The notes beneath the pieces were generated by a model. That model was not told the origin of the DNA, ran no database searches, and saw only the letters and a program-made list of their open reading frames with translations. Source: Escherichia coli 042 (GTDB lineage Bacteria; Pseudomonadota; Gammaproteobacteria; Enterobacterales; Enterobacteriaceae). Taken from it: a stretch of DNA of 64,000 bases. Location: the NCBI RefSeq assembly GCF_000027125.1, contig NC_017626.1; one strand, 5' to 3'. Positions 3,695 through 57,871 of this stretch are shown here, one piece after another; within the stretch, counting starts at the first letter, position 1; each line of letters starts with the position of its first letter. The translations under genes and the position numbers were made by a program.

Positions 3695-4032
3695 TCAGGA
3701 CATAAGCAACTGAAATTGATGGCTGGCATGACGAGGGATGCAGATGCTGATTTCATTACCCCCGGTGATTACTAAAGGAGAGGCGAAAACGACTTTATTC
3801 CCCTGGTATGTGTATCCACCAGTAGAACCCTTCGTTGCCCGAATGCTGGCAGGAACTGTTGGCAGAACGGCAACATTTTTTTTGTCGTTGACCTCACCAT
3901 GTCGATCACTATGCCTGTATCCCACCTTACTGGCTGACAACCCCACTATGCCGCTGGTCTGTAAATCCCTCATATCTCTCCTCGCGCGCAATTTAAAGAA
4001 CCGTTATTTCTCAAGAATTTTCAGGGACTAAA

Positions 4033-9419: not shown

Positions 9420-9665
9420 GACTATCCCTTATATTTCATTACTGCGATTATTTCAATTTCAGTATACTAATGAAATGATGCCAGACTGTTTCTTAGCGCA
9501 AAAACTGCCAGATTTGGTAGGACCAAAATTTATCCACAAAGTAGTTTTGCATAACAGTTAATTGATAATAAGTAAATGCAACACGAATATATTTTCGCAC
9601 AGCGTATAGCTTATGTTTATAAAAAAATGGCTGATCTTATTTCCAGTAAAAGTTATATTTAACTT

Positions 9666-9771
9666 ACTGAGAGCACAAAGTTTCCCGTGCCAACAGGGAG
9701 TGTTATAACGGTTTATTAGTCTGGAGACGGCAGACTATCCTCTTCCCGGTCCCCTATGCCGGGTTTTTTTT
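9666..9771 (+). ncRNA. gadY: Small regulatory RNA GadY, cis-antisense to the gadX 3' UTR
   Basis: Sequence actgagagcacaaagtttcccgtgccaacagggagtgttataacgg...cccggtcccctatgccgggtttttttt matches the GadY sequence as I recall it and ends in a GC hairpin plus T8 terminator on the plus strand, in the gadX-gadW intergenic region. Confidence 0.75.
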
Positions 9772-9787
9772 ATGTCTGAGTAAAACT

Positions 9788-45109: not shown

Positions 45110-45297
45110 TGACCATCAGCGATATCATTGAAATTATTGTCGTTTGCGCACTGATATTTTTCCCGCTGGGCTATCTGGCGCGGCACTCTTTGCGACGCAT
45201 TCGCGACACCTTACGTTTGTTCTTTGCTAAACCTCGTTATGTTAAACCGGCCGGGACGTTACGCCGCACGGAAAAAGCCAGGGCAACCAAAAAATGA
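45106..45297 (+). CDS. bcsF: Small membrane protein BcsF
   Basis: 63-aa single-TM ORF overlapping the bcsE stop and the bcsG start by 4 nt each. Confidence 0.88.
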
Positions 45298-46973
45298 CTC
45301 AATTTACGCAAAATACCGCCATGCCTTCTTCCCTCTGGCAATACTGGCGCGGCCTTTCCGGCTGGAACTTCTATTTTCTGGTTAAGTTCGGCCTGTTGTG
45401 GGCGGGATATCTTAACTTCCATCCGCTCCTCAATCTGGTGTTTGCCGCGTTTCTGCTGATGCCCATTCCGCGCTACAGCCTGCATCGCTTACGCCACTGG
45501 ATTGCCCTGCCGATCGGCTTTGCTTTGTTCTGGCATGACACCTGGTTGCCTGGCCCGGAAAGCATAATGAGCCAGGGTTCGCAGGTGGCGGGGTTCAGTA
45601 CCGATTATTTAATCGACCTTGTCACACGCTTTATTAACTGGCAGATGATTGGGGCCATTTTTGTTTTATTAGTGGCCTGGTTATTCCTGTCACAATGGAT
45701 TCGCATTACCGTTTTTGTGGTTGCCATTCTGCTATGGCTGAACGTACTTACCCTGGCGGGACCAAGTTTCTCCTTGTGGCCAGCCGGTCAACCGACGACC
45801 ACTGTAACAACGACGGGTGGCAACGCAGCGGCAACCGTTGCGGCGACGGGTGGCGCACCGGTAGTGGGTGATATGCCCGCACAAACTGCACCGCCAACAA
45901 CGGCGAACCTTAACGCCTGGCTGAATAATTTCTATAACGCGGAGGCGAAACGTAAATCGACCTTCCCGTCTTCGCTGCCCGCTGATGCTCAACCATTTGA
46001 ACTACTGGTGATTAATATCTGTTCGCTTTCCTGGTCGGATATTGAAGCCGCCGGGTTGATGTCGCATCCGCTGTGGTCGCATTTCGATATTGAGTTCAAG
46101 AACTTTAACTCCGCCACCTCCTACAGTGGCCCGGCGGCGATCCGTTTACTGCGCGCCAGCTGCGGGCAGACTTCGCACACTAATCTGTATCAACCGGCAA
46201 ATAATGACTGCTATCTGTTTGATAACCTGTCGAAACTGGGCTTTACCCAGCACCTGATGATGGGACATAACGGCCAGTTCGGCGGTTTTTTGAAAGAAGT
46301 TCGCGAAAATGGCGGCATGCAGACCGAATTGATGGATCAAACAAATCTGCCGATTATTTTGCTGGGCTTTGATGGTTCGCCGGTTTATGACGATACCGCC
46401 GTGCTTAACCGCTGGCTGGACGTTACCGAAAAAGATAAAAACAGCCGTAGTGCCACGTTCTACAACACGCTTCCACTGCATGACGGCAACCATTATCCGG
46501 GCGTCAGCAAAACAGCGGATTACAAAGCGCGGGCGCAGAAATTCTTTGATGAACTGGACGCCTTCTTTACTGAACTGGAGAAATCGGGTCGTAAAGTGAT
46601 GGTGGTCGTGGTGCCGGAACACGGCGGCGCGCTGAAGGGCGACAGAATGCAGGTATCTGGCCTACGTGATATCCCTAGCCCGTCTATCACAGACGTCCCC
46701 GTTGGGGTGAAATTCTTCGGCATGAAGGCACCACATCAGGGGGCACCGATTGTCATCGACCAACCGAGCAGCTTCCTGGCTATCTCCGATCTGGTGGTTC
46801 GCGTTCTTGATGGCAAGATTTTCTCCGAAGACAATGTTGACTGGAAAAAACTCACCAGTGGGTTGCCACAAACAGCACCGGTCTCCGAGAACTCAAATGC
46901 AGTAGTTATTCAATACCAGGATAAACCGTACGTTCGCCTGAACGGCGGCGACTGGGTGCCTTACCCGCAATAA
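45294..46973 (+). CDS. bcsG: Cellulose phosphoethanolamine transferase BcsG
   Basis: 559-aa ORF with N-terminal TM helices and a C-terminal alkaline-phosphatase-like domain. Confidence 0.93.
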
Positions 46974-47059
46974 GAACGAAAAAGGCCGCAGAGTTTCACC
47001 CCTGCGGCCTGATCCGGGCGCAAATTGCCATTACGGCAGCCTGACGCCCGCATGACACG

Positions 47060-47167
47060 TTACTTCCGCTTATTCAGCGAGTTCACGATCAGACTGGCAA
47101 GAATGCCAGCAATGACCGGAGCCGCTAAATCATGCCAGAAGGCCATGCCCAGTTCTGCGAGCGTCAT
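47060..47167 (-). CDS. ldr: Ldr-family type I toxin peptide (35 aa), copy 1
   Basis: MTLAELGMAFWHDLAAPVIAGILASLIVNSLNKRK; ATG at 47165-47167. The ORF-track 80-aa ORF is an upstream in-frame extension. Confidence 0.85.
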   Translation of the reverse strand: MTLAELGMAFWHDLAAPVIAGILASLIVNSLNKRK

Positions 47168-47215
47168 ATAGCCGCCTCTGTTGTAATGACAACGTTTCGC
47201 GGCTATTCTTGAGTT

Positions 47216-47283
47216 GTTTGGGTTCAAGATTAGCCCCCGTGATGTTGTCAGGTGCATACCTGCAACGTGCGGGGGTTTTCTCT
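47216..47283 (+). ncRNA. rdl: Rdl-family antisense RNA, copy 1
   Basis: Plus-strand element ending in the hairpin gcccccg...cgggggttttctct within the ldr leader; coordinates inferred from my recollection of RdlD. Confidence 0.55.
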
Positions 47284-47542
47284 CTCCAGCAACCAATGCC
47301 ACCAGGGATTAAGCCCCCGCAACATTGCGCCTCACCGGAACCCTTCCGGCTTGCCGCTGATTCTACGGCCATTTTTGTTCGTCGAAATCCATCACTTCTT
47401 CACTCTGTGCTGCGCATTCCGCAGAATATTATCCGCTTGCAGCCGTTGCATTTTTCTTACGAAAAAGGCCGCAGAGTTTCACCTCTGCGGCCTGGTCCGG
47501 GCGCAAATTGCCATTACGGCAGCCTGACGCCCGTCTGACACG

Positions 47543-47650
47543 TTACTTCCGCTTATTCAGCCAGTTCACGATCATGCTGGCAAGAATGCCAGCAATGACC
47601 GGAGCCGCTAAATCATGCCAGAAGGCCATGCCCAGCTCTGCGAGCGTCAT
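47543..47650 (-). CDS. ldr: Ldr-family type I toxin peptide (35 aa), copy 2
   Basis: Same frame and length as copy 1; C-terminus ...ASMIVNWLNKRK; not reported separately in the ORF track. Confidence 0.8.
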   Translation of the reverse strand: MTLAELGMAFWHDLAAPVIAGILASMIVNWLNKRK

Positions 47651-47698
47651 ATAGCCGCCAGTGTTGTAATGACAACGTTTCGCGGCTATTCTTGAGTT

Positions 47699-47766
47699 GT
47701 GTAGGTTCAAGAATGGCCCCCGTCATATTGTCAGGTGAATACCTGCAACGTGCGGGGGTTTTCTCT
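47699..47766 (+). ncRNA. rdl: Rdl-family antisense RNA, copy 2
   Basis: Repeat-unit copy of the rdl element with terminator hairpin. Confidence 0.5.
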
Positions 47767-48025
47767 CTCCAGCAACCAATGCCACCAGGGATTAAGCCCC
47801 CGCAACATTGCGCCTCACCGGAACCCTTCCGGCTTGCCGCTGATTCTACGACTGTTTTTCTGTTCCGAAATCCATCACTTCTTCACTCTGTGCTGCGCAT
47901 TCCGCAGAATATTATCCGCTTGCAGCCGTTGCATTTTTCTTACGAAAAAGGCCGCAGAGTTTTATCCCTGCGGCCTGATCCGGGCGCAAATTGCCATTAC
48001 GGCAGCCTGACGCCCGTCTGACACG

Positions 48026-48133
48026 TTACTTCTGCTTGTTCAGCCAGTTCACGATCATGCTGGCAAGAATGCCAGCAATGACCGGAGCCGCTAAATCGTG
48101 CCAGAAGGCCATGCCCAGCTCTGCGAGCGTCAT
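48026..48133 (-). CDS. ldr: Ldr-family type I toxin peptide (35 aa), copy 3
   Basis: MTLAELGMAFWHDLAAPVIAGILASMIVNWLNKQK. Confidence 0.85.
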   Translation of the reverse strand: MTLAELGMAFWHDLAAPVIAGILASMIVNWLNKQK

Positions 48134-48181
48134 ATAGCCGCCTCTGTTGTAATGACAACGTTTCGCGGCTATTCTTGAGTT

Positions 48182-48249
48182 GTGTAGGTTCAAGAATGGC
48201 CCCCGTGATGTTGTCAGGTGCATACCTGCAACGTGCGGGGGTTTTCTCT
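48182..48249 (+). ncRNA. rdl: Rdl-family antisense RNA, copy 3
   Basis: Repeat-unit copy of the rdl element with terminator hairpin. Confidence 0.5.
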
Positions 48250-48508
48250 CTCCAGCAACCAATGCCACCAGGGATTAAGCCCCCGCAACATTGCGCCTCA
48301 CCGGAACCCTTCCGGCTTGCCGCTGATTCTACGACTGTTTTTCTGTTCCGAAATCCATCACTTCTTCACTCTGTGCTGCGCATTCCGCAGAATATTATCC
48401 GCTTGCAGCCGTTGCATTTTTCTTACGAAAAAGGCCGCAGAGTTTCACCTCTGCGGCCTGGTCCGGGCGCAAATTGCCATTACGGCAGCCTGACGCCCGT
48501 CTGACACG

Positions 48509-48616
48509 TTACTTCCGCTTGTTCAGCCAGTTCACGATCATGCTGGCAAGAATGCCAGCAATGACCGGAGCCGCTAAATCATGCCAGAAGGCCATGCCCA
48601 GTTCTGCGAGCGTCAT
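48509..48616 (-). CDS. ldr: Ldr-family type I toxin peptide (35 aa), copy 4
   Basis: MTLAELGMAFWHDLAAPVIAGILASMIVNWLNKRK. Confidence 0.85.
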   Translation of the reverse strand: MTLAELGMAFWHDLAAPVIAGILASMIVNWLNKRK

Positions 48617-48664
48617 ATAGCCGCCTGAGTTGTAATGACAACGTTTCGCGGCTATTCTTGAATG

Positions 48665-48732
48665 GTCTAGATGCAAGAATGGCCCCCGTGGTGTTGTCAG
48701 GTGCATACCTGCAACGTGCGGGGGTTTTCTCT
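48665..48732 (+). ncRNA. rdl: Rdl-family antisense RNA, copy 4 (RdlD-like)
   Basis: gtctagatgcaagaatggcccccgtggtgttgtcaggtgcatacctgcaacgtgcgggggttttctct, the copy closest to the RdlD sequence as I recall it. Confidence 0.6.
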
Positions 48733-48991
48733 CTCCAGCAACCAATGCCACCAGGGATTAAGCCCCCGCAACATTGCGCCTCACCGGAACCCTTCCGGCT
48801 TGCCGCTGATTCTACGGCCATTTTTGTTCGTCGAAATCCATCACTTCTTCACTCTGTGCTGCGCATTCCGCAGAATATTATCCGCTTGCAGCCGTTGCAT
48901 TTTTCTTACGAAAAAGGCCGCAGAGTTTTATCCCTGCGGCCTGATCCGGGCGCAAATTGCCATTACGGCAGCCTGACGCCCGTCTGACACG

Positions 48992-49099
48992 TTACTTCTG
49001 CTTGTTCAGCCAGTTCACGATCATGCTGGCAAGAATGCCAGCAATGACCGGAGCCGCTAAATCGTGCCAGAAGGCCATGCCCAGCTCTGCGAGCGTCAT
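48992..49099 (-). CDS. ldr: Ldr-family type I toxin peptide (35 aa), copy 5
   Basis: MTLAELGMAFWHDLAAPVIAGILASMIVNWLNKQK. Confidence 0.85.
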   Translation of the reverse strand: MTLAELGMAFWHDLAAPVIAGILASMIVNWLNKQK

Positions 49100-49147
49100 A
49101 TAGCCGCCTCTGTTGTAATGACAACGTTTCGCGGCTATTCTTGAGTT

Positions 49148-49215
49148 GTGTAGGTTCAAGAATGGCCCCCGTGATGTTGTCAGGTGCATACCTGCAACGT
49201 GCGGGGGTTTTCTCT
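49148..49215 (+). ncRNA. rdl: Rdl-family antisense RNA, copy 5
   Basis: Repeat-unit copy of the rdl element with terminator hairpin. Confidence 0.5.
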
Positions 49216-49574
49216 CTCCAGCAACCAATGCCACCAGGGATAAAGCCCCCGCAACATTGCGCCTCACCGGAACCTTTCCGGCTTGCCGCTGATTCTACGA
49301 TTGCTTTTTACCGTCAGCACCCGGCAATCTTCCTCATTGCGCGATGCCTTCCAGCTTAATTTCTTTATTTGCAATAGTTGCAGTTCATATCCGGGCTGAC
49401 TCCAGACTGGTAGTGAAATGCGCAATTTTGTAGAATTGCGCCTCCTCGCGACCTCCCCAGTGAATCTGTTGCCTCATTTTTTACATACTGCGTATTCGAC
49501 TTCTCCACCTGTTGCGCAAGAGAAACTGGGTTTATTCATTTTTGCGAGGCCGACTTCTTTCTGGACAGGACTTT

Positions 49575-50846
49575 ATGCAGCACAACACACTACCGAAACA
49601 CGATCAGAAATTGCCGTTTACACGCTACGACTTCGGCTGGGTTTTATTATGCATAGGCATGGCGATTGGTGCCGGAACCGTGCTGATGCCAGTACAAATT
49701 GGCTTGAAGGGAATTTGGGTATTTATTACCGCAGCGATCATTGCTTATCCTGCCACCTGGGTAGTGCAGGACATTTATTTAAAAACCCTTTCTGAAAGCG
49801 ATTCCTGTAATGACTACACCGATATTATCAGTCATTACCTGGGGAAGAACTGGGGAATTTTCCTCGGGGTTATCTACTTTTTGATGATTATCCACGGGAT
49901 TTTTATCTACTCTCTCTCCGTGGTTTTCGACAGCGCCTCGTACCTGAAAACCTTCGGTTTAACCGATGCCGATCTTTCACAATCTCTACTTTATAAAGTC
50001 GCCATTTTCGCCGTACTGGTGGCGATTGCGTCTGGTGGTGAACGATTACTGTTTAAGATTTCCGGGCCAATGGTGGTGGTCAAAGTAGGGATTATTGTCG
50101 TGTTCGGTTTTGCGATGATCCCGCACTGGAATTTCGCCAATATAACCGCCTTCCCGCAAGCCTCCGTCTTTTTCCGCGATGTCCTGCTTACCATTCCATT
50201 TTGCTTCTTTTCTGCAGTATTTATTCAGGTACTTAACCCAATGAATATTGCCTATCGTAAACGGGAAGCAGATAAAGTACTGGCAACCCGGCTCGCGCTG
50301 CGTACCCACCGAATTAGTTATATCACGCTCATCGCGGTGATCCTGTTTTTTGCCTTTTCGTTTACCTTCTCAATTAGCCACGAAGAAGCCGTTTCTGCCT
50401 TTGAACAAAATATCTCGGCACTGGCACTGGCCGCGCAGGTGATCCCTGGACATATCATTCATATCACCTCGACGGTGCTGAATATCTTTGCCGTACTGAC
50501 CGCATTCTTTGGCATTTATCTCGGTTTCCACGAGGCCATTAAAGGCATTATTCTCAATCTGTTAAGCCGAATCATTGATACCAAGAAAATTAACTCACGC
50601 GTGCTGACTCTGGCGATCTGCGCTTTTATCGTCATTACGTTGACGATTTGGGTTTCGTTTCGTGTATCGGTGCTGGTGTTCTTTCAGTTGGGAAGCCCGT
50701 TATATGGCATTGTGTCGTGCCTCATTCCATTTTTCCTGATCTATAAAGTCGCACAACTGGAAAAACTTCGCGGGTTTAAAACCTGGCTGATTCTGCTGTA
50801 CGGCATTTTGCTATGCTTGTCGCCACTGTTGAAGCTGATTGAGTAA
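49575..50846 (+). CDS. yhjV: Amino acid permease-like inner membrane transporter YhjV
   Basis: ORF 49512..50846 trimmed to the ATG at 49575 ([36 protein letters not shown]...); 423 aa; polytopic. Confidence 0.9.
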
Positions 50847-50875
50847 ACCGGAGCGCACGGCCCCGGTTTTGTGAG

Positions 50876-51880
50876 TTAACGCTGCGGATTTTCATCCTGA
50901 TCAACAGCAAAACAAGCTACCAGTTGACCGCCGTAGTCTTTTAGCTGCGGCTGCAACTGGGTGCAGGGGCCGAAGCGCCGACGACAGCGGGCGTTAAACG
51001 CGCAGCCCGGCGGTGGATTGAGCGGGCTTGGCAGTTCACCGGTGAGCTTGATGCGCTCGCGGCGATCGTCCGGGTTCAGGCGCGGCGTCGCGGAGAGTAG
51101 CGCCTGAGTGTACGGATGACGCGGGTTATTGAAGATTTGGTCCTTCGTTCCCTTCTCCACGCAGCGGCCCAGGTACATCACCATCACTTCATCGGCAATG
51201 TGCTCAACCACTGACAGGTCGTGCGAGATAAAGACATAAGACAGCCCCAACTCCTGCTGCAAATCCATCATCAGATTCAGCACCTGCGCACGCACTGAAA
51301 CGTCCAGCGCGGAAACCGGTTCATCGGCAATCACCACATCCGGGTCGAGCATCAGACCACGGGCAATGGCGATACGCTGACGCTGACCGCCGGAGAACAT
51401 ATGCGGATAGCGGTCGTAATGCTCGGTTTTCAGGCCGACTTTCGCCATCATCGACAGGGCTTTTTCCCGACGCTGTTCTTTGCTTAAGCTGGTGTTGATC
51501 AGCAGCGGTTCTTCAAGAATTTGCCCGACTTTTTTACGCGGATTCAGCGAACCGTAGGGATTCTGGAAGACGATCTGGATTTTCTGCCGACGCAGCTTCT
51601 GCGCCTGCGGATCGTGCTTGAGCAGATCCTGCCCCTGGTAATACAGCTCACCGCCGGTGGGCGTTTCGATCATCGTAAGCAACCGACCGAGGGTAGATTT
51701 ACCGCAGCCGGATTCACCTACTACCGCCAGCGTTTTGCCACGTTCAAGGTTAAACGAAACGCCATCCAGCGCCTTCACCAGACGTTCCGGCGCGAACATA
51801 CCTTTCTTCACCGGATAATGTTTTTTCAGGTCGATAGCCTGCAACAGCGGTTGTTGCGAGGTGGCCTCATGCGTACTCAT
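50876..51880 (-). CDS. dppF: Dipeptide ABC transporter ATP-binding protein DppF
   Basis: 334-aa ORF with Walker [10 protein letters not shown] and ABC signature. Confidence 0.95.
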
Positions 51881-54900: not shown

Positions 54901-55072
<172 letters not shown>

Positions 55073-56750: not shown

Positions 56751-57295
56751 CCCTTTGCAGTGGGTTGTCGCTGCCTGACCTTTTTTGTTTTTTGCCCGGT
56801 CGGGTCAACGTTATGAGGTGGGGATGCCGTACTAATTAACATCAGTGTAACAGTGCGGATCCTCCATAAAATGCCCCTCGTGACCTACAATCTGTCAACA
56901 GAATGTGAAAACGTCAATACAGCCAACCGGGATTTACACCAACGGTGAGAATCCACAAACAAAGATTAAAAAAACTTCAAACAGCTATTTGCAGCAGAGA
57001 AATTTGTGCTACTCCAACATGACCAGAACAATCAGCTTAATATTTAGCAACAATTGGTGATTAAGTTTTATGCATTTTGTGAAAAAAATCTGAGGAAAAG
57101 GTGGATATCTGAGCGATTAATACCATGAACGCTAAAACGCACAGCGGAAAATGCCAGCGCCAGCCATAAGTAACGCAAAAAAAAATTTAAGCAAATATAA
57201 AAAAAGACAATGGTTTCTGTCACAAATCCGTTAATGGATAGTGAGATATGGGCGCAAATTTGGCAGGAAAATGTGTGGTGTGTAGGTCGAATAAG

Positions 57296-57794
57296 GCGGT
57301 CGCGCCGCATCCGACAATGGGCCGGCACATTTGCCTGATGCGACGCTGGCGCGTCTTATCAGGCCTACGTCGAATCGAACCTCCCTGCCCCCGGAAGTTC
57401 TCATCCTCTTCAGGCCGCAGAAAGCAAAAAACCAGCCCGTAGGCTGGTTTTTCTAAATTGGTCGGTGATAGAGGATTACTCGCCACTTCGTGGCTCGCCC
57501 TGCGGGCCGTTGCTGGCGCAACGTTCTCTCGCTTCGCTCGAGTCGAATCTCCCTGCCCCCGGAGGTTCTCATCCTCATAGGCTACAAATGCAAAAAAGCC
57601 TGCTCGCTGAGCAGGCTTTTCGAATTTGGTCGGTGCCAGAGGATTACTCGCCACTTCGTGGCTCGCCCTGCGGGCCGTTGCTGGCGCAACGTTCTCTCGC
57701 TTCGCTCGAGTCGAACCTCCCTGCCCCCGGAGGTTCTCATCCTCATGGGCTACAAATGCAAAAAAGCCTGCTCGCTGAGCAGGCTTTTCGAATT
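57296..57794. repeat. Three tandem imperfect direct repeats (about 150-185 bp), each ending with a terminator hairpin plus a roughly 20-nt copy of the proK 3' end
   Basis: Units at about 57296-57479, 57480-57648 and 57649-57794. Each contains tcgaa(t/c)ctccctgcccccgga(a/g)gttctcatcctc, a hairpin (aaaaaaccagcccgtaggctggttttt or aaaaaagcctgctcgctgagcaggctttt) and aatttggtcggtg(at/cc)agaggatt, which matches the proK 3' terminus. Confidence 0.7.
57762..57790 (-). terminator. Rho-independent terminator of proK
   Basis: On the minus strand aaaagcctgctcagcgagcaggcttttttg, 5 nt after the tRNA 3' end. Confidence 0.65.

Positions 57795-57871
<77 letters not shown>

Follow-up and report, generated by a model that had tools for sequence, protein, structure and literature searches.

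The intergenic region between bcsG and yhjV in the window, a stretch of 64,000 nucleotides from Escherichia coli 042, carries five ldrD/rdlD-type type I toxin-antitoxin units in tandem, each of them self-contained. Strains differ in how many LDR-D units they carry (one to at least five), and we consider the array in the window very probably a genuine and ordinary, albeit uncommon, allele of this site. As judged from sequence comparison, it amounts to a four-unit haplotype that is widespread (units 1-2-4-5 in the numbering used here) with one additional unit, unit 3, a hybrid whose head is that of unit 5 and whose tail is that of unit 2.

Architecture of the array

Tandem Repeats Finder (TRF) reported a single tandem array at 46976-49309 with a period of 483 bp, 4.8 copies, 95% matches, no indels, and a score of 4268. 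A repeat search of the window recovered five head-to-tail copies with a spacing of exactly 483 bp, and the end of unit 5 at about 49299 is the onset of unique sequence upstream of yhjV. The neighboring genes are those of the LDR-D site, bcsG (yhjU) and yhjV, as in the annotated loci of K-12, A10, and SMS-3-5. An earlier note on this DNA had described five Ldr/Rdl units between these two genes, which TRF, the five Ldr open reading frames (ORFs), and five rdlD matches bear out; its coordinates, 46976-49297, were correct within about 10 bases. The array, its flanks, and its units are as follows.

45294..46973, plus strand: bcsG, left flank (ORF; annotation of homologous loci)
46976..49309, no strand assigned: LDR-D tandem array, 4.8 copies of a 483-bp unit (TRF, repeat search, column-by-column unit comparison)
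46976..47458, no strand assigned: unit 1, adjoining bcsG, identical to the first unit of A10 and Ecol_316
47459..47941, no strand assigned: unit 2, identical to Ecol_316 unit 2
47942..48424, no strand assigned: unit 3, the extra hybrid, positions 1-334 equal to unit 5 and positions 281-483 equal to unit 2
48425..48907, no strand assigned: unit 4, identical to Ecol_316 unit 3
48908..49309, no strand assigned: unit 5, truncated terminal unit adjoining yhjV, same sequence as the final units of Ecol_316 and TUM1226
49575..50846, plus strand: yhjV, right flank (ORF; start set by the 423-aa coding sequence annotated in homologous loci)

The units differ by 2.5-5% and carry private variants, with the exception of units 3 and 5, which are identical over 334 bp. 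Further identical stretches that could serve as crossover substrates are positions 281-483 of units 2 and 3 and the tails of units 1 and 4.

Toxin and antitoxin genes of the units

Each unit contains an ldr coding sequence (CDS) on the minus strand and an rdl gene on the plus strand.

47060..47167, minus strand: ldr CDS of unit 1, 35 aa, MTLAELGMAFWHDLAAPVIAGILASLIVNSLNKRK, ending ...SLIVNSLNKRK (ORF; Pfam PF13940, E=1.2e-23)
47543..47650, minus strand: ldr CDS of unit 2, 35 aa, ending ...SMIVNWLNKRK (ORF; 34/35 identical to K-12 LdrD, PDB 5LBJ)
48026..48133, minus strand: ldr CDS of unit 3, 35 aa, ending ...NWLNKQK (ORF)
48509..48616, minus strand: ldr CDS of unit 4, 35 aa, ending ...NWLNKRK (ORF)
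48992..49099, minus strand: ldr CDS of unit 5, 35 aa, ending ...NWLNKQK (ORF)
47216..47281, plus strand: rdl of unit 1 (Rfam RF01813, 90.4 bits)
47699..47764, plus strand: rdl of unit 2 (Rfam RF01813, 78.3 bits)
48182..48247, plus strand: rdl of unit 3, same sequence as in unit 5 (Rfam RF01813, 83.8 bits)
48665..48730, plus strand: rdl of unit 4 (Rfam RF01813, 81.8 bits)
49148..49213, plus strand: rdl of unit 5 (Rfam RF01813, 83.8 bits)

The Ldr variant of unit 1 matched the Ldr_toxin profile PF13940 over its full length (positions 1-35 of 35, E=1.2e-23), and precomputed PF13940 matches in related loci covered all Ldr variants. The experimentally characterized 'Small toxic polypeptide LdrD' (PDB 5LBJ) is identical to the unit 2 variant at 34 of 35 residues (E=3e-19). 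A search of all Ldr variants with the NCBIfam HMMs gave no match. Proteins identical to these variants are labeled 'type I toxin-antitoxin system toxin Ldr family protein' by PGAP, presumably through a type of rule other than an NCBIfam HMM.

All five rdl genes belong to the RdlD family: their RF01813 scores of 78.3-90.4 bits exceed the gathering score, which is 50, and model positions 1-66 are aligned in each case. They are arranged in cis-antisense, each lying on the strand opposite to its own ldr and 49-114 nt upstream of the ldr ATG. The complementary region is the ldr 5' UTR, outside the ribosome-binding site and the CDS, in agreement with the description of the K-12 system (PMC4147584). 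The Rdl 5' tails diverge, with 0-7 differences per 66 nt between units and the variable sites of the tails at positions 3-17, and the tail of unit 4 is the most divergent of the five.

The terminator scan detected one ldr hairpin on the minus strand and one rdl terminator on the plus strand in every unit, ten sites in total, as compared with 3.0 +/- 1.9 in shuffled sequences. A scan of the window array for sigma-70 consensus promoters returned no site, so the candidate promoters are deduced only from conservation and from knowledge of K-12. One such candidate, TTGTAA-17-TATTCT upstream of rdl, was found by eye to be conserved in all units. The putative -35 region of ldr sits in the variable tail and differs between unit classes.

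46983..47010, minus strand: terminator hairpin of the unit 1 ldr mRNA, with an 11-bp stem and a TTTTT tract after it (terminator scan)
47466..47493, minus strand: ldr terminator hairpin of unit 2 (terminator scan)
47949..47976, minus strand: ldr terminator hairpin of unit 3 (terminator scan)
48432..48459, minus strand: ldr terminator hairpin of unit 4 (terminator scan)
48915..48942, minus strand: ldr terminator hairpin of unit 5 (terminator scan)
47360..47365, minus strand: TAGAAT, putative ldr -10 box of unit 1 (conservation, by eye)
47843..47848, minus strand: TAGAAT box of unit 2 (conservation, by eye)
48326..48331, minus strand: TAGAAT box of unit 3 (conservation, by eye)
48809..48814, minus strand: TAGAAT box of unit 4 (conservation, by eye)
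49292..49297, minus strand: TAGAAT box of unit 5 (conservation, by eye)

The predicted ldr mRNA of about 370 nt would start after the TAGAAT box, end at the strong terminator hairpin, and encode a 35-aa single-helix membrane toxin. The 66-nt Rdl from the plus strand, which has full complementarity to a stretch of the ldr 5' UTR lying ahead of the ribosome-binding site, would repress the translation of the toxin. We infer both functions for the window units from their near-identity to K-12, where LdrD is toxic upon overexpression and RdlD represses ldrD translation (PMC4147584, PMC8309996). The mechanism and the lineage-specific duplications of Ldr have been described (PMC4147584, PMC8309996, PMC2887945). 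The first reported effect of LdrD is nucleoid condensation (PMC8309996), and proton-gradient dissipation is unchanged in chromosomal ldrD and rdlD mutants (PMC11997105); the term 'membrane-depolarising' used in the earlier note is not established for LdrD. Neither does the array imply the higher toxin dose proposed there, since every unit adds its own Rdl antitoxin gene along with the toxin. Unit 2 differs from the others in its ldr leader, where an upstream in-frame ATG, kept in the other units and in K-12, is replaced by ATT and an in-frame TGA is present. If the missing ATG is the start of a proposed leader ORF, unit 2 may not express its toxin.

Copy-number variation and origin of the allele

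Among 5,421 complete E. coli genomes, the locus holds one unit in about 45%, two in 12%, three in 25%, and four in 15%, and about 38 genomes (0.7%) have the spacing expected for five. These counts come from flank-only queries of chosen length, in which the joining distance acts as a size threshold: flanks were joined in 5275 genomes at a threshold of 2100 bp and in 5313 at 2450 bp. A query combining the flanks with the whole array was unusable for counting, as out-of-register pieces were joined and three-unit genomes reached 100% coverage. The five-unit total is approximate because not all records in which the flanks matched in two separate places represent long arrays; GPEC673, one such record that we inspected, has an IS200C insertion and four units. 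A search with a different five-unit array found five Ldr genes annotated at the locus in at least 33 RefSeq complete genomes, including SMS-3-5. The comparison with other E. coli assemblies suggested in the earlier note hence yielded complete genomes with one, two, three, four, or five units. The single ldrD that it gave for this site in K-12 was confirmed by locus comparison, and 'expanded' is apt relative to K-12 but not among E. coli at large, where about 55% of complete genomes have two or more units.

Ecol_316, THO-008, and about 20 further complete genomes have a four-unit haplotype that shares units 1-2-4-5 and the flanks with the window except for one SNP but lacks unit 3. Beyond the shared stretch, at 50003-50927, this haplotype differs by 15 SNPs, which fall in the 3' portion of yhjV and at the end of dppF. 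Units 1-4 of Ecol_316 equal units 1, 2, 4, and 5 of the window; the left side is identical over 1950 bp apart from the SNP at 47422, and on the right side identity extends to 50003. Only units 1 and 5 are present in A10 and seven other genomes, whose flanks are 100% identical to those of the window; the clade with such flanks includes A10, 2021CK-01784, ECA64, CB6837, LSC52, and CH4796. No genome among the 5,426 complete genomes searched matched the arrangement of units 2-3-4 above 97.5%, and the exact arrangement of the window was absent from the 20 loci returned by two exact-protein look-ups, which covered 24 blocks each and are weak negative evidence.

Unequal homologous recombination between the 483-bp repeats would change the number of units, and gene conversion would shuffle variants between them. 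Unequal recombination, already proposed in the earlier note, is the best explanation for the copy-number change, with the identical stretches within the array as substrates. A single unequal crossover in the window array would produce the four-unit allele already known, and a different single crossover would produce the two-unit one; the reverse route would take two events. Two relationships are conceivable: the window allele gave rise to the four-unit and two-unit alleles, each through one deletion, or it arose from the four-unit allele in two steps. An origin from the four-unit allele by one unequal crossover was rejected; it gives another order of units or a hybrid that joins a unit 4 head to a unit 2 tail, whereas the observed hybrid joins a unit 5 head to a unit 2 tail and lies between units 2 and 4. 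The direction of change, taken as a gain in the earlier note, may be the opposite, as single deletions lead to the commoner four-unit and two-unit alleles.

Unit 3 is the sole unit that no other assembly supports, and the possibility of misassembly raised in the earlier note concerns this unit only. The true locus might have four units (1-2-4-5), unit 3 having been introduced when the repeats were wrongly resolved or when mis-mapped reads were used for polishing. Unit 3 is indeed made solely of sequence found elsewhere in the array, the unit 5 head (334/334) and the unit 2 tail; without it the locus is identical to Ecol_316 but for one SNP, and the arrangement occurs in none of the 5,426 complete genomes. 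However, the usual fault of assemblers is to collapse repeats, not to gain copies, and the new junctions keep the exact 483-bp phase. Just such a hybrid is expected from recombination or gene conversion, and at least 33 other complete genomes carry genuine five-unit arrays. On balance, we regard an artefact as unlikely.

A recent adaptive amplification from one K-12-like unit, selected for toxin dose, for instance in persistence or phage defence, is scarcely credible. Tandem arrays can grow by unequal recombination, and the 334-bp identity of units 3 and 5 attests to at least one recent duplication or conversion event. The divergence and private variants of the other units argue against a recent origin for more than unit 3, contrary to the amplification assumed in the earlier note, and units 1, 2, 4, and 5 occur unchanged in other lineages, which implies an old array. 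Moreover, each unit brings an antitoxin with its toxin, the chromosomal mutants showed no phenotype in the proton-gradient assay (PMC11997105), and single deletions from the window array account for the shorter related alleles.

Apart from the reading as an ordinary allele, which we prefer, LDR-D could be imagined as a contingency locus. Units would often be gained and lost by unequal recombination, which, together with diverging Rdl 5' tails and differing -35 regions, would then create partly independent toxin-antitoxin pairs whose number and mix tune stress tolerance or phage defence between lineages, and the five-unit allele of the window would be a surviving ancestor of the commoner four- and two-unit alleles. 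We deem this reading quite improbable.

Relation to known Ldr loci

The Ldr toxin/Rdl antisense RNA system has been characterized since 2002. Both the system and its polymorphism are already known, and five-unit arrays at this site are annotated in dozens of public complete genomes. Lineage-specific duplication of tandem type I toxin-antitoxin loci has been documented (PMC2887945); a full-text literature search found no paper specifically on copy-number variation at the ldrD locus. K-12, with its single ldrD, represents one allele at a highly polymorphic site, where the unit count ranges from one to at least five, and the series of five-, four-, and two-unit alleles with otherwise identical sequence is a clean display of unequal crossover in a toxin-antitoxin array. 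Caution is advised for assemblies and for toxin-antitoxin gene counts, as short-read assemblies may miscount the units.

LDR-D of K-12 MG1655 occupies the same bcsG-yhjV site with one unit instead of five, differing from the window units at 15-20 of 392 bp. It shares the rdl gene layout and terminators, and it also agrees with the terminal unit in its upstream part: the sequence upstream of ldr in unit 5 matches that of the single K-12 unit. K-12 LdrD is identical to the window Ldr at 34 of 35 residues in units 2 and 4 and at 31-33 of 35 in the others. All window variants have Leu3 in place of Phe3 in K-12, and some differ at the C-terminus, ending ...SLIVNSLNKRK or ...NKQK. SMS-3-5 (NC_010498.1), E200086, MSB1_4I, and about 30 other complete genomes have five intact Ldr genes at the same locus as annotated by PGAP, but the sequences and order of their units differ from those of the window, the nearest units being 2-20 positions apart. 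Some of their spacings are 484 bp and some of their Ldr proteins end ...SLIVNWLNKRK, making them haplotypes separate from that of the window. The ldrA-ldrB-ldrC array of K-12, like ibs/sib and zorO/zorP, likewise combines small hydrophobic toxins with cis-antisense RNAs in tandem within one intergenic region. This array has another chromosomal location and is a member of the LdrA/B group, with 57% identity to LdrD (PMC8309996), whereas the units in the window are all of the LdrD type.

Layout of the five-unit array

The 483-bp LDR units of the window form a single tandem array at 46976-49309 (Tandem Repeats Finder; period 483, 4.8 copies, 95% matches, 0 indels, score 4268), and a repeat search of the window placed the five copies at a spacing of exactly 483 bp. 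Units are numbered 1 to 5 from the bcsG side.

Array and flanking genes
45294-46973, + strand, bcsG, left flank
47060-47167, - strand, ldr ORF of unit 1, 35 aa, intact
47543-47650, - strand, ldr ORF of unit 2, 35 aa, intact
48026-48133, - strand, ldr ORF of unit 3, 35 aa, intact
48509-48616, - strand, ldr ORF of unit 4, 35 aa, intact
48992-49099, - strand, ldr ORF of unit 5, 35 aa, intact
ending at 50846, + strand, yhjV, right flank

The antitoxin RNA rdlD (Rfam RF01813) was matched at full length on the + strand in all five units, scoring 78-90 bits (gathering score 50). Every unit has a terminator hairpin 3' of the ldr ORF on the - strand, with an 11-bp G+C-rich stem and a T-run, and a second terminator on the + strand at the end of rdl; 10 terminator-like sites were observed, compared with 3.0 +/- 1.9 in shuffled sequence. 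The repeats, ORFs, RF01813 matches and terminators bear out the earlier note, which had described a five-unit Ldr/Rdl array between bcsG and yhjV and had correctly located it at 46976-49297.

The Pfam Ldr_toxin profile covers 35/35 residues of the peptides (E=1.2e-23), which occur in three variants, ending in SLIVNSLNKRK (unit 1), SMIVNWLNKRK (units 2 and 4) and SMIVNWLNKQK (units 3 and 5). The variant of units 2 and 4 is identical to K-12 LdrD (PDB 5LBJ, NMR structure) at 34/35 residues.

Other RNA features in the window
3812-3883, known sRNA ES205
9663-9776, known sRNA GadY
55009-55051, known sRNA ES036
57285-57365, naRNA4, REP-derived match
57459-57592 and 57627-57762, - strand, two tandem RtT matches (Rfam, 97-100 bits) downstream of tRNA-Pro(CGG)
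57795-57871, - strand, tRNA-Pro(CGG), which we take to be proK

Subtracting the four extra LDR units presumably brings the GadY-to-ldr and ldr-to-tRNA-Pro(CGG) spacings to those of K-12. No large insertion was seen in the rest of the window.

Antisense pairing, transcription signals and toxin dose

Each rdl lies on the strand opposite ldr, in the interval 49-114 nt before the ldr start codon, and is thus antisense to the 5' UTR rather than to the ribosome-binding site, a layout likewise described for ldrD/rdlD (PMC4147584). The five Rdl copies differ from one another at 0-7 of 66 positions, solely in the 5' tail and mid-hairpin. Each Rdl is a perfect complement of its own unit's mRNA and a near-perfect one of the mRNAs from the other units, which makes cross-repression between units likely.

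Alignment with the K-12 unit revealed two elements kept in all five units: a TAGAAT box that precedes the ldr ATG by about 190 nt, and TTGTAA-17 nt-TATTCT directly upstream of rdl. Since a generic promoter scan found no site, we only infer the ldr and rdl promoters. The ldr transcript would start after the TAGAAT box and end at the hairpin, giving about 370 nt. The putative ldr -35 region falls in unit positions 393-483, the most variable part of the unit. Units 1 and 4 have one form of this part (tail A), units 2 and 3 another (tail B), and the terminal unit 5 a third, K-12-like form. Therefore, the five ldr genes may differ in transcription level. The tail sequences just upstream of the TAGAAT box lie at 47366-47458, 47849-47941, 48332-48424, 48815-48907 and 49298-49390.

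In K-12, overproduction of LdrD causes growth arrest, cell killing and nucleoid condensation within minutes, and RdlD prevents this toxicity post-transcriptionally; in one hypothesis, ldrD translation is coupled to a leader ORF, ldrX, and RdlD acts by blocking this ORF (PMC4147584, PMC8309996). Near-identity suggests that each unit in the window would work as K-12 ldrD/rdlD does. Units 1, 3, 4 and 5, like K-12, carry a minus-strand ATG (47257, 48223, 48706 and 49189) within the Rdl-complementary hairpin region, from which the reading frame leads into ldr without a shift (MHLTT...GGY-MTLAEL...). Unit 2 has ATT in place of this ATG (around 47740), followed by an in-frame TGA, as does the identical unit of Ecol_316, a four-unit strain. 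If the upstream ATG frame is the proposed leader ORF, the unit 2 toxin may go untranslated.

Calling the toxin membrane-depolarising and its dose higher, as had been done previously, overstates the case. A drop in ATP was shown for LdrA, a homologue of LdrD, and in a proton-gradient assay chromosomal ldrD and rdlD mutants showed wild-type behaviour (PMC11997105). Because every unit brings its own antitoxin gene, a higher net toxin dose does not follow from having five of them.

Mosaic units, related alleles and direction of change

The units differ pairwise at 2.5-5% of positions, except that units 3 and 5 show no difference in their first 334 positions. Variants are distributed as a mosaic: units 2 and 4 have head variants in common as well as private variants missing from units 1 and 5, and unit 3 combines the head of unit 5 with the tail of unit 2. 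Ecol_316 carries a four-unit allele that matches window units 1, 2, 4 and 5 exactly; its left flank is identical at 1950/1950 positions, one SNP lies at 47422, and the right side is identical up to 50003, the remaining 15 differences all falling within 50003-50927. Adding one 483-bp unit in phase to that four-unit haplotype thus gives the window array. About 20 complete genomes match a query of units 2-3-4 as Ecol_316 does (97.5%), and no complete genome gave a match above 97.5% to this segment or above 97.7% to the whole array. Two-unit arrays with 100% identical flanks occur in eight complete genomes, including A10, whose aligned units correspond to window units 1 and 5.

The 50003-50927 segment (925 bp) comprises the 3' portion of yhjV together with the end of dppF, and the two-unit strains are identical to the window across it. 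To its left, over 4.9 kb that include the array, Ecol_316 differs just by the extra unit of the window and one SNP, a pattern suggestive of a recombination boundary within yhjV.

The earlier note called the locus expanded, which holds as a comparison with the single unit of K-12, but this view is K-12-centred and the direction may be wrong. A single unequal crossover within a 203-bp stretch common to units 2 and 3 would convert the window array into the four-unit allele, and a single exchange between the tails that units 1 and 4 share would yield the two-unit allele. The reverse change from four to five units would need two events, for instance an offset-2 crossover that gives six units and then a deletion, or a duplication and then gene conversion. 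Given these crossover substrates, the window array as parent of the shorter alleles fits the sequence at least as well as expansion from a shorter allele, although the rarity of the window allele counts against a parental array and the identity of units 3 and 5 suggests that unit 3 took part in a recent event.

The concern about an assembly artefact narrows to unit 3, since units 1, 2, 4 and 5 were confirmed base-for-base and in the same order by independent complete assemblies. Unit 3 alone is without such support and is made wholly of sequence found elsewhere in the array. However, assemblers more often collapse such repeats than add copies, and five-unit arrays are genuine in other genomes; we consider a one-unit error improbable.

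Copy number at the bcsG-yhjV site

The complete-genome set gave 5,426 matching records from 5,421 genomes, and copy number was sampled in 60 of these records at even spacing. One unit was found in 27/60 records, including K-12 and O157:H7, two in 7, three in 15 and four in 9, with 2 others. The single K-12 unit given in the earlier note is correct, and it represents one allele among several. Longer arrays were counted with flank-only queries, joining matching pieces within half the query length plus 500 bases. Flanks were joined in 5275 genomes at a 2100-bp limit (four units or fewer) and in 5313 at 2450 bp, which puts about 38 genomes (0.7%) at the 2334-bp spacing of five units. The gap is wider in 37 genomes at most; in the one examined, GPEC673, it contains an IS200C insertion and four units rather than a longer array.

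IS insertion is frequent in the bcs-ldr region of other strains: IS200C lies between bcsG and the LDR array in GPEC673 (L001 7713-8171), IS1 replaces bcsE in CP164765.1 (L006 8443-9140), and IS4-family elements lie within bcsG at two further comparison loci (L010 6291-7307; L027 6094-7422).

As a cross-check, a different five-unit array (locus L006, GenBank CP164765.1) was used as query, and at least 33 complete RefSeq genomes have five PGAP-annotated Ldr family proteins within the matching region. In the two loci examined, SMS-3-5 (NC_010498.1) and E200086, all five Ldr genes lie between bcsG and yhjV. Five-unit arrays at this site are uncommon, yet annotated examples are already public. Ldr genes were reported in 2010 to have undergone lineage-specific duplication, reaching as many as 10 copies in Shigella sonnei Ss046 (PMC2887945). 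The Ldr/Rdl system is well known, and five copies are an uncommon value of a common polymorphism.
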